Part shown: positions 1-58,660 of the stretch, piece by piece
How the letters are laid out: each line of letters opens with the position of its first letter
Position numbering within the stretch: the stretch's first letter is position 1
Source of the DNA: Eledone cirrhosa
Taxonomy: Eukaryota
Length of the DNA stretch: 64,000 nucleotides
Reading direction: 5' to 3'
NCBI GenBank assembly: GCA_964016885.1
Contig: OZ024753.1
Location: 33,294,001 to 33,358,000 of the forward strand
Position numbers and translations under genes: made by a program
The notes under the pieces: generated by a model
Databases searched by the model: none
What the model was told of the DNA's origin: nothing
The model's input: the letters and a program-made list of their open reading frames with translations, nothing else

Positions 1-370
1 GTATAATAAACCTTTCAAGGATTTACACAAGTCCAGCCTCCTGTCATTTCATTATAATATTTAACTCCGTACTAGCACCACCAACTACAAAAACAAAGAC
101 GGTTGAACTGCTTTACGTTGAGTACTCTCCAGATTATTACATTAAGATTGACCATACGGAATTGACCAGCTCTATCCAGTGGTGAACCTCAAACCTAAAT
201 ATATATATATATATACATACAAGAGGAAGCTTAGTAAAATCGAAAGTTTGGCTGTGGCCAAGCAAAGTTGACCTACAATAAGGAATGAGTAGCAAAGCAC
301 TCAATAAGGGTAGGTCCTTAGAGGGATAACATACGTTTAAATAGCTTGAAAAATTGATAGATAATAGATA

Positions 371-512
371 GATATTAGATATTAATTTAACAATGAAAAG
401 AATAACAACAAAGTCAAGTTATTTTACCTATTCATATTGTTTATGATATGAATAGATAAAATAACTTGACTTTGTTGTTATTCTTTTCATTGTTAAATTA
501 ATATCTAATATC
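371..512. repeat. Near-perfect hairpin (~67-bp arms) within a probable PLE-end relic (221-645)
   Basis: gatattagatattaatttaacaatg... and its reverse complement ...cattgttaaattaatatctaatatc. Confidence 0.8.
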
Positions 513-669
513 AGACTCTGTATCTAAGGAATTAACTCATCAGAACAAGGAATGTTTCTATGGATTTCATTGGATTACTTGCTATCAGATTACATTGAGT
601 TCTATCTATGGTACGGACCCTACCACGAAAGGTAAACCACATAGAAAAAAAAAATATATATATATATAT

Positions 670-906
670 AAACAAATAGTAGAAAGGAAAAAGATATTTT
701 CAGTAGAAAATGTTTAAGAGATTCTTTCAGTGTAATATCAAAACATTTATTTATTTATAAAGAGGATATTTCCGCATTTGATAATGGGTTTGATATTACA
801 CTGAAAGAATCTCTTCAGCATTTTCTACTGAAAAAATCTTTTTCCTTTCTACTATTTGTTTTTATATATATATATCAACGTGTGTGTTTCTTTCCTACAT
901 TCGAGA
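670..906 (+). mobile_element. Hairpin (670-743/788-861) plus one-sided tail in TA tract; probable PLE-end relic
   Basis: aaacaaatagtagaaagg... / ...cctttctactatttgttt, followed by a short unpaired extension and TA. Confidence 0.55.
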
Positions 907-1055
907 TATATATATATATATATATATATGTAGGAGGTGAGTTTTATTGTAGTACAATAAAGCAATGCAGATATCGGATAAGAAGCACTCTACAGTTTGT
1001 GGGACTGGAGTATGCATAATATAAGATCAAAAGATGGTTAAAGGAGTTCAATATA

Positions 1056-1122
1056 TTTTATTATGCGCATTTCAAAAACAAACATCATCAAACAATAATA
1101 TTTGTGTTTTCATCAGATAAAA
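1056..1122 (-). ncRNA. Minimal type I hammerhead ribozyme in PLE terminal repeat
   Basis: Minus strand reads ttttat-CTGATGA-long stem II-GAAA-T-GCGC-A-TA-ataaaa; stem I ttttat/ataaaa pairs. Confidence 0.85.
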
Positions 1123-54683: not shown

Positions 54684-55704
54684 TTCCACGCTTGCATGGG
54701 TTTCGACAGGAGTTTTCCCACTTGAGGCAAGAGTGGTTGTCTTGCTCGCATAGGACTGTCTGGCGGGTTTTCTATGGCTGGATGCCCTTCCTAACACCAA
54801 CCACACTTACAGTGTGGAACTGGGAGGCTTTTACCATGTTACCTACACGGCCACATTACAGCGTGGACTGTGTGTTTTTTTTTTGCCGTGACACCTACAC
54901 GACCTCATTTGTTTCGGGCTGGATGTTGTGGTACCAACATAACTTTACATTGAAAGGGGTGGTGTGGATGGGGTGGTGGTAGTAGGACGGGGGTATATTT
55001 TGTTAGAGGTGCCTACTGACAGTAGTAGGTTTCATTTTGTACTTAGGTAAGGTGGGTCTTCTCTATTACTGTGTAGCGCCAAAGGTCTCGGTCCAGTGAC
55101 ATTTTCTTGGAGAGGTGTAAATGTGTGAGGTCGGAATTGATCAAGTCGTCCCAGGCTTTTCTGGGTCTGCCTACTCTGTGGCTACCCTCTATTTTTATTG
55201 CCCTGCACTTTTTTATACAGCTGTCGTCTTTCATGCACATCACGTAACCATACCAACATAGTCTTCTCTCGAGTAAACAACATCTGATTTTTCCCTTAGT
55301 TCATTTATGGTTTGCCGTTCACGTATATTACTATTACACATCCAGCGGAGCATGCAAGCTTCATTCCTCTCCAGTCTGTGTATATCCTCTGCACACAATG
55401 CCCAGGTCTCACTGCCATGCAACATTGCTGTTCGTATGCAGGCATCATACAGCCTGCCTTTTATTTTTAGGGAGAACCCTTTCGCGGCTAATAGTAGTAT
55501 AAGCTCTCTGAACTTTTTCCATCCAGTTCTGACTCTAGCTACTGTACTTTCAGAGTACCCTCCCCCACTGCTGATTTTGTCACCCAGGTAACGGAAGCTG
55601 TCAACTATTTCTATAGAACCATCTGTGCAATGGAATGAGCTAGTATTCTGTGGGCACTTGCTGCTACTTATTGCACCAGAGTACCGGCCACATATAAAAT
55701 CTAT
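54684..55704 (-). mobile_element. RTE-clade LINE, 5'-truncated, tail missing
   Basis: Reverse-complement match to the 3' part of the full copy. Confidence 0.9.
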
Positions 55705-56030
55705 ATATATATATATACATTTATAATATACATTTATATATATATATTTATATAATATACATTTATATATATATAATGTATATATAATATGTATATGTAT
55801 GTTTATATATATATACATATTTGTGTGTATATATGTTCATATATTATATATAAATATATATGCACATATTTATACACAGACACACACATATGTATATGTA
55901 TATATATATATATATATATATATATATATAATACATATATATATATGTATTATATATATATATATAGTTGTATATGTATATATATATATATATATAATAC
56001 ATATATATATATGTATTATATATATATATA

Positions 56031-57754
56031 AAGTTGATGGACCAGGTCATGAAAGTAACAGAAAGAGTTATAGCACAGCTGATTAGGGACCGGGTGAATA
56101 TAGACGAGATGCAATTTGGGTTTGTACCAGGGAAAGGCACCACTGATGCCCTCTTCCTTGTGAGGCAATTACAGGAAAAGTACCTAGCTAAAAGTAAGCC
56201 ACTCTACTTGGCATTTGTCGACCTTGAGAAAGCCTTTGACAGAGTTCCACGTGCAGTAATCTGGTGGGCTCTTAGAAAACTAGGAGTAGATGAATGGCTT
56301 GTGAAAGCGGTACAAGCCATGTATAGGGGAGCAGTCAGCAAAGTTAGGATTGGCAATGAGTATAGCGAGGAATTTAGCCTACAGGTTGGGGTCCACCAGG
56401 GCTCTGTTCTTAGCCCTCTCCTGTTCATCATAGTCCTGCAGGCAATAACGGAGGAGTTTAAGACCGGATGCCCATGGGAACTCCTGTATGCTGATGACCT
56501 CGCACTCATAGCTGAATCTATGGTAGAACTAGAGAATAAATTCCAAACCTGGAAGCAGGGACTAGAAAGAAAGGGCCTCAAAGTCAACATGACAAAGACT
56601 AAGGTCCTTATAAGTAGACGAGAAAACAGAACCCAGATCCCCTCAGGGAAATGGCCTTGCTCAGTATGTAGGAAAGGTGTAGGTAGGAACTCCATTCTCT
56701 GCCCCAAATGCAAACAATGGGTACACAAGAGATGTAGCGGGATCTCAGGAAGCTTAATTAAGAATGTAGGATTCACATGCAGCAGCTGTGCTGAAACAGC
56801 AAGCAAACAGCCACAGGAAACAAGTACCACCAATCTCTGGGAGGGCCCTGTAGAAACAGTAGACAGCTTCTGCTACCTAGGTGACCGAATTAGCAACGGA
56901 GGTGGGTGCTCAGAAAGTACAATAACTAGGGTAAGAACGGGATGGAAGAAGTTTAGGGAACTACTACCACTGCTAGCTGCAAAAGGCTTCTCCCTCAGAA
57001 TGAAAGGCAGACTGTATGATGCGTGTATCCGAACAGCGATGTTGCATGGTAGTGAGACCTGGGCGCTGAAGGTGGAAGACTTACGTAGATTAGAGAGAAA
57101 CGAAGCCTGCATGCTCCGATGGATGTGTAACAGTAATATACGTGAACGACAAAGCATAAATGAATTGAGAGAGAGACTGAGCATAAGAGGAATCAAATGC
57201 TGCGTGCAGAAGAGTCGGTTACGCTGGTATGGACATGTGATGCGTATGAAGGATGACAGCTGCATAAAAAGGTGCAGAGCACTAGAAGTTGATGGAAACC
57301 GCGGAGTGGGGAGACCCAAGATGACTTGGGATGAGGTGATAAAAGCCGACCTTACCCAACTACACCTCTCAAAGTCAATGACACACGACCGTGACTTCTG
57401 GCGTCACGCAGTAATACAGGGTACCCGACCTCCCATGGGTACATGCTGAAGCATATAAACAATATGCCCCCCCCCCCCCAACCGCAAGGTGGTCGTGGAG
57501 GTGCCACGGCAAAAAAGCACCCAGCCCACACTCTAAAGTGGACGTGTAGGCGCCACGAAAAAGCACCCAGCACTCACTGTAAATGAGGTTGGTGTTAGGA
57601 AGGGCATCCAGCTGTAGAAATCAAGCCAGATCAGTTCCTGTATGAGCAAGGCATGGTCAGCCGACCAGACACTGCCCACAACAGGACAACCCGTCTAACC
57701 CATGCTAGCGTGGAAGAACGGACGTAAAACGCTGATGATGATGATGATGATGAT
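56031..57754 (+). mobile_element. RTE-clade LINE of a sister subfamily, 5'-truncated, ORF open 56034-57449
   Basis: RT motifs, PHD-like finger, (GAT)n tail; clearly diverged from the 43873 copy. Confidence 0.92.
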
Positions 57755-58304
57755 ACATATATATGTGTGTATATACAGTTTCCATATTTCCCTCTCAGTT
57801 TTCATAAAAGTAAAATTATATTCTTATTTAAGTTGTGCATTCTTGAAATATGACAAAAGAGAAATGCTAATCATCAAATATTTTGGCAATTGTCTCAGCT
57901 ATATTACTTGACACATGTCAGGTCAAATATTCTTTTAAAGTGTAATTAATAATTAACTCCTCTAAAACATTACGCATATTAAGCTGAAACAGTCTCCCCA
58001 ATGAAAAAGAAAAAATAACTTCCAATAAACAAATATTTAAAGTGAAATATAAGTTCAAACCTGATGTATCACAAGAAAAAAGAAACGTTTATCTTGTCAG
58101 TTTGTATTAGAAATATGGAGTTTGAATTCATGGCTGAGTGGTTAAAGGGTTTCCTTCACAATCATGTGTTTTCTGGTTTGGTGCCAATGCATGGCACTTT
58201 GGCTGGGTGATTTCTGCTATAGCTTTCAGTTGAATTCGGTAGATGGAAATTGTTTGGAAGTTCATAGTGTATGTATGTATGTATATATATATATATTATT
58301 ATTA

Positions 58305-58505
58305 TTGGCAGTATCGGTAGAGGGTCGGATGCCATGGTTTGCAGCAAAGACTTACGGCCGTTTATGGTCTGAGTTCAAATCCCGCTGAGGTTAACTTTGC
58401 CTTTCATCCTTACGGGGTCGATAAAATAAAGTACCAGTAATGCACTGGGTAATTGCTAGCCTTGTGCCAAAAGTAGAAACAATTATTATTATCATTATTA
58501 TTATT
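58305..58505 (+). mobile_element. tRNA-derived SINE (26943 family)
   Basis: Same head, core and (ATT)n tail; older copy at ~63210-63390. Confidence 0.8.
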
Positions 58506-58660
58506 AACACTCTGCTTGTTAAGGATACCGACTATGGGGAAATACCAAATGTATAATATGACATCAGTAGTTGGACTCTGATTAACATTGAGTGCTTATA
58601 CTGGTGAACCAATAGTAACTAAATGTTAAACACTAATACACTCTATATATATATATATAT

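Follow-up and report, generated by a model that had tools for sequence, protein, structure and literature searches.

The Hydra-clade Penelope-like elements (PLEs) of Eledone cirrhosa carry the same bulged RNA stem-loop twice in their 5' leader, and inserted elements end 2-7 nt before either the first or the second of these copies. Judging from these genomic ends, each copy probably serves to dock the RT-endonuclease and thereby sets the point at which reverse transcription begins. We analysed a 64-kb stretch (64,000 nt of contig OZ024753.1, hereafter the window, to which all positions refer) together with related loci. The motif reads RCUC-(variable hairpin)-UN-GAGY-RCY and is larger than in a preliminary description of this DNA. 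The elements are ordered hammerhead, site A, first motif copy (M1), site B, second copy (M2), ATG. One motif per insertion had been described; this is M1, while the G-C-closed M2 beyond the tail had been overlooked.

The window's carrier element (ORF 7139-9541) is young and intact. By sequence motifs and a fold match, it encodes an RT plus, at the C terminus, a GIY-YIG endonuclease on one ORF; a Pfam scan of both window ORFs returned no family. The ORF shows the clade marks RRLRWT (the RWK motif, K to T), SDKT, CNCRIKNKC (CxCX5C linker), CNLC (CxxC) and CLH (CxH), and among 16 aligned proteins R37 reaches a conservation of at least 90%. A hammerhead lies in the pLTR and insertion is into (TA)n. 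Hydra-clade PLEs, as set out in the accessible part of Craig et al. 2021 (PMC8557442), have the same ORF features and hammerhead, target (TA)n in the same way, and share the tandem and inverted structure and the one-sided tail. By these marks, the carrier is a Hydra-clade PLE. Its family (family 1) measures 3.9 kb with an 800-aa ORF, for which 93 scored genomic matches show 98-100% identity over residues 1-454. The top fold match of the protein model was TERT (3du5, E 6.7e-8).

Table 1. Motif copies and associated features in the window (CM, covariance model; L numbers denote loci).
Feature	Position	Strand	Basis or remark
M1 with 50-nt inner insert, TA-ended tail	64..126	+	CM E 0.007; copy 2 of family in L142/L143; no ORF match
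M1, first base mutated	295..324	-	intact relative in L240; CM E 1.2; no copy 2 or ORF linked
Family-1 tail, site A to site B, then (TA)n	932..1018	-	contains the M1 at 984..1011
M1, terminal tail of family 1	984..1011	-	string match and CM
Minimal type I hammerhead, palindromic stem III, predicted cut 1062	1055..1123	-	span approximate
Hydra-clade RT and GIY-YIG ORF, 800 aa	2360..4762	-	motifs read from sequence
M2, GCUC...UU-GAGC-GCU	4814..4834	-	site B 6-8 nt upstream; ATG 51 nt downstream
M1, unbroken tandem junction	4897..4924	-	4-7 nt 3' of site A
Hammerhead of upstream unit, predicted cut 4975	4968..5036	-	span approximate
M2, 5' end of inverted copy	7067..7087	+	inverted copy begins 11 nt before M2
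Hydra-clade RT and GIY-YIG ORF, intact	7139..9541	+	motifs and fold match
Hammerhead, cut predicted at 10857, with site-A end of inverted copy, into (TA)n, no motif	10796..10903	+	span approximate
Decayed M1, inner stem unpaired, TA-ended tail	15324..15359	+	family L131/L132 has copy 2 and Hydra ORF; missed by CM at E<=2
M1 of family-1 relative in hairpin insertion, bulge GU	19999..20026	+	string match and CM
M1	30725..30747	-	family has copy 2 and Hydra ORF (L111, L122)
M1	34973..34994	+	neither an ORF nor a consistent continuation found for this family
M1 in hairpin insertion	36396..36422	+	family has copy 2 and Hydra ORF (L102, L145)
M1	58575..58596	+	no copy 2 or ORF linked

When at least two inner pairs were required, nine ACTC/GAGT matches were found in the window, and in seven cases a (TA)4 run follows at a distance of 28-85 nt. 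Shuffled windows with microsatellites kept in place (100 shuffles) gave a mean of 0.45 matches (maximum 3, none near TA). One of the nine matches (21612, minus strand) has no TA run nearby and probably arose by chance. In 1 Mb of other stretches of the genome (20 adjoining the window, 80 from elsewhere), 56 of 68 matches had TA 28-85 nt downstream, against a background rate of 6.3%, and 15 had TA upstream. Five control stems in the same 1 Mb gave 7, 7, 2, 4 and 4 matches, with 0, 0, 0, 2 and 0 near TA. Genome-wide, M1 before a TA run was matched 60,752 times on the forward strand versus 929 for the control; these are matches, not copy numbers, and the reverse-strand count is inflated by overlaps. 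Of eight Rfam matches in 4700-5100, every one scored far under the gathering threshold, and the motif itself was hit by none. Among the 150 listed of 398 Rfam matches in the whole window, all were below gathering and most were microRNA models on TA repeats. Viral contigs gave 17 candidates, of which none was confirmed. We found no description of it in the literature, including the accessible parts of PMC8557442, PMC4209133, PMC3846280, PMC5737381 and PMC13282606; Lunse et al. 2017, on PLE hammerheads, may bear on novelty.

All ten motif strings of the preliminary description are present at their positions, at most 1 nt off. They stand for eight families, since 983, 4896 and 19999 belong to one (about 85% identical), and the hairpin is no longer intact in 15324 (inner stem decayed) and 295 (first base mutated). 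Four examples had been given for a fixed spacing from site A: 19999 and 36396 stand, whereas 30134 and 33848 lack the full motif. In the former the 3' box was destroyed by a (CTTA)n expansion, and the latter belongs to a family without the GAGY-RCY box. The families had been taken as unrelated, which did not hold where testable: four of the eight are linked to Hydra-clade ORFs, and the three linked families besides the window's own have 37-59% ORF identity. One further family has copy 2 but no ORF match, and three are not linked. For the families at 34973, 295 and 58575, no copy 2 was found with patterns allowing 6-30-nt inserts, by which long-insert copies would be missed. These three families weigh against a two-copy model.

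The inner stem changes sequence and mostly stays paired, as had been claimed. In 83 clusters chosen blind to pairing, the first inner pair is Watson-Crick in 69 (C-G 34, U-A 33) versus 35.9 in shuffles that ignore relatedness. At inner pairs 1-3, G-U occurs 25 times versus 3 (at most 4) for A-C. The bulge begins with U in 75 of the 83 clusters and is preceded by a purine in 77; the outer stem letters, G-A included, were search terms. In the outer 4-bp stem the first pair is not constant: most foreign elements have G-C at this position, and copy 1 of the present genome has A-U.

The double arrangement occurs genome-wide in 1,550 matches versus 67 for the control. In ten reference clusters, nine once a chimera was dropped, the M1-M2 spacing is 78-137 nt, and in eight of them the proteins are 33-100% identical. 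The apparent double motifs of L139, L141 and L052 are nested insertions of two families. When a G-C-closed first copy was required, satellites and RTE fragments made up most of the matches, and these search patterns were discarded. After removal of L141, 80 in-register TA junctions were counted, 38 before copy 1 (A) and 42 before copy 2 (B). All 80 lie within 20 nt of a copy, as do 25 of 26 out-of-register TA ends; of the 200 alignment ends, 94 lacked a TA end and were left out. The junction lies 2-7 nt before the stem in 32/38 (A) and 37/42 (B) cases, or 69/80 overall, although junctions recur within about eight families and the counts are not independent. The distance is fixed relative to the 5' strand of the stem, though the inner insert varies from 9 to 50 nt. 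At the junction, element and target share 2-6 nt of TA-like sequence. The earlier proposal, that a conserved RNA element determines where reverse transcription begins internally, agrees with all tests made here and gains from a second copy that marks the second start; its extension to unrelated families fails where testable.

The same arrangement is found in foreign loci. Two copies precede 25 of 35 foreign Hydra ORF starts, one copy precedes six and none precedes four, versus 0 of 447 ORF-internal windows with two copies. There, tail and copy spacing are 59-82 nt, and junctions compared by eye (L310, L313, L358 and L361 versus L302) lie 2-4 nt before M2. Among six published Hydra consensi inspected by eye in the accessible material, the motif is clear in three (Hydra-2_Amil, Hydra-2_Ajap and Hydra-1_Ajap, the last with two copies before the ATG), variant in two (Hydra-1_Crog, Hydra-1_Obim) and doubtful in one. 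A non-coding 600-bp repeat (L433-L452) also keeps both copies and the junction distance, with an inner insert of 74-76 nt and the second copy past the TA junction; the first pair of its M2 is unpaired in most copies, which counts against the model. As a non-coding tandem repeat it resembles non-LTR retrozymes, thought to be moved by PLE proteins (PMC7229834; bioRxiv 10.64898/2026.07.22.740005). However, retrozymes are defined by hammerheads, and a hammerhead pattern search found no match in the 600-bp repeat. The accessible parts of both sources describe no recruitment motif for retrozymes.

The motif is probably not PLE-wide, to judge from other tails. It is absent from the tails of two further TA-inserting families, one presumably Neptune-like from its motifs and one represented at 33545 and 58661, which have two ends 57-61 nt apart. 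These families have tails, so not every PLE requires the motif to form one. For the 33545/58661 family, no parent ORF or common continuation was found in 30 + 20 loci; the endonuclease ORF that adjoins it in L379 belongs to a different insertion. Among the 54 box matches seen in part of the Craig supplement (PMC8557442), whose FASTA does not include 21 Repbase Hydra consensi, 28 lack the full motif.

If each copy docks the RT-endonuclease and priming occurs just 5' of it, tail length should equal copy spacing. The element protein would nick (TA)n on both strands, and each nicked 3' end would pair, over 2-6 nt, with UA-rich sequence lying immediately 5' of the bound motif. M1 would serve to prime one strand and M2 its partner, giving two head-to-head cDNAs that differ by the M1-M2 spacing, the tail. 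More speculatively, the core purine-U-N-G-A-G / C-U-C-pyrimidine might fold as in TAR, with a U.A-U triple and an arginine sandwich, a structure that the clade's N-terminal R-x-R-W helix might read. In the arginine sandwich motif, a paired purine and a bulged pyrimidine are followed by a G-C and an A-U pair (Pham et al. 2018, PMC6189040, accessible part), and the stem-loop shows this sequence pattern. HIV-1 TAR continues G26-A27-G28 like the motif, and 7SK ASM3 has a 2-nt UU bulge (PMC6189040). Unlike TAR and 7SK, the motif has permuted strand connectivity (its loop closes the other helix) and a conserved unpaired RCY after the stem. The likeness, as read from sequence, is of pattern and not of homology. 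A bolder version, which we offer tentatively and consider rather doubtful, is that of a duplicated, portable 25-nt TAR-like tag. An RT dimer would grip both tags through R-x-R-W helices and prime both (TA)n strands at two internal points, with the tail equal to tag spacing; the tag alone would recruit in trans, a possibility to which the 600-bp repeat without an ORF points, and could set the start in any RNA.

The same junction geometry would result if the motif directed RNA cutting a few bases 5' of it, by self-cleavage or by a host or element nuclease, and ordinary 3'-end priming then produced the A and B ends. In agreement with this, 4 of 30 family-1 ORF loci, the window's inverted copy included, have their 5' end 8-14 nt before M1 or M2. 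However, 44 of 55 B-ended copies extend at least 20 nt beyond M1 and five stop 0-19 nt before it; most templates were thus uncut at A. In addition, Rfam gave no ribozyme match in 4700-5100, and the Poseidon element PAc of Anolis carolinensis initiates internally on uncut RNA (Frangieh et al. 2024, PMC11167929, accessible part). We consider RNA cutting improbable. Slightly less credible still is that UA-rich microhomology beside a stable hairpin alone sets the starts, the motif being retained for a different function, for example cis-preference or feedback on translation close to the ATG. Microhomology of at least 3 nt occurs at 25/38 A and 29/43 B ends versus 14% expected (counted, like the TA stretches below, before L141 was removed), and M2 lies 13-31 nt upstream of the ORF start in foreign loci. 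Yet none of 81 ends used the 20 other alternating TA stretches of at least 6 nt in the references, the ORF-less repeat keeps both copies and the junction distance, and the isolated fold is modestly stable, with another pairing competing with M2 (z -2.15).

An action in DNA, as endonuclease recognition site or promoter box, would suit the near-palindromic, conserved 3' box GAGY-RCU-C, and the Drosophila virilis Penelope endonuclease reportedly needs the tail for recognition (as cited in the accessible part of PMC11167929). It is very unlikely, given compensatory pairs and the excess of G-U over A-C on the sense strand, a distance tied to the 5' strand across 9-76 nt inserts, and target (TA)n runs without the motif. 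Chance or plain shared descent without function, to which the shortness of the motif and count inflation by same-family copies might point, is largely refuted by its retention with covariation between unalignable flanks and has next to no probability.

Internal initiation at two sites has already been published for PAc (PMC11167929). In the accessible part of that study, the two sites bound the tail, RNA 3' of the starts is needed, the target is AT-rich and a dimer is predicted. Both systems thus have two starts or ends bounding the tail, known here from genomic ends. However, the PAc starts fall within the ORF, where they occupy an AC-rich stem-loop that has no defined binding motif. The Hydra ends depart from that pattern: they are found on the 5' side of the stem and upstream of the ATG, and they show microhomology. 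The roughly 95-nt PAc RNA string of Fig. S1 contains no RCUC/GAGY-RCY by eye. PAc starts without homology to its target, which contrasts with the microhomology seen here and counts against the model. For Hydra elements, a tail of 30-40 bp has been ascribed to endonuclease-mediated resolution (PMC8557442, accessible part); here, the tail tracks copy spacing instead.

The one in vitro PLE study located start sites and not, in its accessible part, their signal, for which the motif offers a defined candidate. If true, paired motifs would explain the one-sided tail of PLE insertions. With the motif as a marker, a very large repeat load can also be annotated. In telomerase, too, the template that is copied is internal and is held in position by RNA elements to which protein binds, and PLE RTs are the closest mobile relatives of telomerase. 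The likeness here is confined to TERT as top fold match, and none to telomerase RNA is claimed for the motif. A protein-positioned internal template in PLEs would nevertheless bear on the origin of telomerase-style anchoring.

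The bulged stem-loop RCUC-[variable hairpin]-UN-GAGY-RCY (the motif) is matched nine times in the window in its ACTC/GAGT form, against a mean of 0.45 after shuffling, and all ten strings of the preliminary description are present. They had been assigned to unrelated families; the ten collapse to eight families, the strings at 15324 and 295 are decayed, and 30134 and 33848, cited as motifs next to an insertion end, are not full motifs. Other stretches of the same genome (1 Mb) yielded 68 matches, compared with two to seven for each of five control stems, and a TA run followed 28-85 nt downstream in 56 of these (background 6.3%).

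In the 3.0 Gb genome of the source animal (window at G000:C13:33294001-33358000), the young element of the window forms an array of tandem and inverted units. Its ORF encodes 800 aa and contains RW, DKT, CxCX5C, CxxC and CxH, all of which belong to the feature list for Hydra-clade Penelope-like elements (PLEs) in PMC8557442. The best match of its structural model was TERT, and the 93 scored genomic matches to the ORF are 98-100% identical. A minimal type I hammerhead, whose stem III is palindromic, has its predicted cut about 43 nt before the tail-less end (site A).

Elements in the window and their coordinates
Feature	Position	Strand	Remarks
3.9-kb element unit	932-4845	minus	
Truncated upstream element unit	4845-7055		
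Inverted element copy	7056-10900		
LINE with endonuclease and RT ORF	43968-47206	plus	many copies; fragments 20733-21934, 41789-42823, 55998-57449

The leader of this element holds the motif twice. At the unbroken junction 4755-4990 (minus strand), the next feature after the tail is GCUC-hairpin-UU-GAGC-GCU (4814-4834), and the ATG lies 51 nt after this second copy (M2). Genome-wide, the pattern of box 1, 45-75 nt and copy 2 gave 1,550 matches versus 67 for the control. From the window and 90 loci we extracted at least 57 double motifs; 48 usable references fell into 10 clusters, one of them a chimera of two nested families, and the spacing from the first copy (M1) to M2 is 78-137 nt. In eight of the clusters a Hydra-type ORF lies downstream, and its protein shares 33-100% identity with the one in the window. 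For three window families no link to M2 or an ORF was established. Two loci of the family at 64-126 (L142 and L143) carry M2 and a hammerhead, and their M1 has an insert of 50 nt; no Hydra protein match was found in the 5 kb examined.

We then aligned the references to the window and the 1 Mb sample. With the chimera dropped, 106 of the 200 ends of these alignments continue into (TA)n, 80 in register and 26 out of register; the counts below exclude the 94 ends without TA and derive from about eight families, so the ends are not independent. All 80 in-register ends lie within 20 nt of a motif copy, and 32 of 38 ends at site A (just before M1) and 37 of 42 at site B (just before M2) fall 2-7 nt upstream of the stem. 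Out-of-register ends agree (25/26 within 20 nt). The distance stays fixed relative to the stem's 5' strand however long the insert is, which is what a folded structure should give. In 54 of 81 ends (the 81 include the chimera), against 14% expected, at least three alternating bases are common to element and target, but none of 20 alternating stretches at other places in the reference sequences served as an end. We therefore infer that microhomology helps, but that the motif chooses the site.

Folding was analysed in 83 clusters selected blind to inner pairing; 43 of these are foreign and 40 come from the animal's own genome, with some noise among them. Inner pairs 1-4 were Watson-Crick in 69/83, 46/82, 41/64 and 22/48 cases, versus 35.9, 21.4, 16.3 and 12.8 in shuffles that ignore relatedness. 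Since G-U outnumbers A-C among the inner pairs by 25 to 3, the sense strand is indicated. In a hand-picked alignment of 36, likewise ignoring relatedness, both sides changed at four of seven pairs, a result that leans towards a structure. The motif had no match in Rfam. Its bulge starts with U in 75/83 clusters, is preceded by a purine in 77/83 and is followed by G-A-G, which fits the arginine sandwich pattern of TAR and 7SK as defined in PMC6189040, but with permuted connectivity. The R-x-R-W motif of the clade sits on a predicted N-terminal helix, a candidate reader of the RNA motif.

Other organisms carry the motif as well. A 16-protein alignment was used to fetch 79 metagenome and 14 genome-bin loci, of which 46/93 had a sense copy and 8/93 an antisense copy. 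The prevailing form is GCUC...UY-GAGC-ACU. Upstream of 35 foreign ORF starts (at least 130 nt required, one mismatch allowed, some near-duplicates), 25 had two copies, six had one and four had none, whereas control windows inside ORFs had one copy in 4/447 and two in 0/447. Six published consensi (coral, sea cucumber, copepod, octopus), judged by eye, gave three clear, two variant and one doubtful motif. The Hydra PLE contigs in bacterial genome bins (L350-L363) are presumably host-animal contamination.

A purely translational role is argued against by a family with G-C-closed M1, which, traced past its TA junction, proved to be a roughly 600-bp tandem repeat (L433-L452, L382, L399) that inserts in (TA)n and keeps both copies without an ORF (longest stop-free frames in L452 at most 64 codons). 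Neither a Hydra protein match nor, under the pattern search used, a hammerhead core was found. Its M2, present in 15 of 20 loci, 13 of them distinct, starts three bases past the junction, where 6/7 TA-ended matches stop; the 74-76-nt insert lay outside the reach of earlier search patterns, and the first pair, U-A in some copies, is unpaired in the majority. This repeat is a candidate non-autonomous partner of Hydra PLEs.

Alternatively, the RNA might be cut at site A. In family 1, the window's own element, four of 30 ORF loci (7056 in the window, L006, L012 and L023) start 8-14 nt upstream of M1 or M2, as a cut would allow, but 44 of 55 B-ended copies extend at least 20 nt beyond M1.

We consider it probable that, instead, the protein binds each copy and cDNA is primed from nicked (TA)n. 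The element protein would dock on each copy, and the nicked target would prime on the UA-rich bases directly 5' of it, with M1 serving one strand and M2 the other; the arms would come to lie head-to-head and differ in length by the M1-M2 spacing. As far as genomic ends can tell, the junction geometry and the second copy are consistent with the initial proposal that the motif sets an internal start of reverse transcription. Two-copy priming would agree with PAc, the Poseidon element of Anolis carolinensis, for which PMC11167929 describes two internal starts that bound the tail and a requirement for RNA 3' of them. A 58-bp satellite (L432, G000:C1:14233000-14242999; more than 120 units), each unit joining a UA-rich stretch to an M1 of the 36396-family type, could be a product of repeated priming at one motif. 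In L431 the 34973 family occurs as an 83-bp tandem.

In two further TA-inserting families the ends are likewise paired, yet the tail lacks the motif. An abundant hairpin family (33543-33903, 58661-58965) has two ends 61 nt apart, a U3-A8 core hammerhead and a different small hairpin in its tail; a search for its parent ORF found none. The family at 19765-19903 and 31222-31345 (also L379, 1-1354), by its motifs presumably Neptune-like, ends in TA at two points spaced by 57 nt, represented by 8 and 9 ends, and likewise lacks the motif in its tail. The broken RT fragment at 31979-33025 (plus strand), from a different PLE clade and without a Pfam match, we also take to be Neptune-like by its motifs. 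Copies of the LINE, which we assume to be RTE-like, are likewise flanked by TA runs.

The literature searched, with incomplete coverage, contained no description of the motif. On the sequence evidence, a known clade of retroelements carries a real, duplicated RNA motif that is apparently undescribed and makes the question of the tail directly open to experiment.
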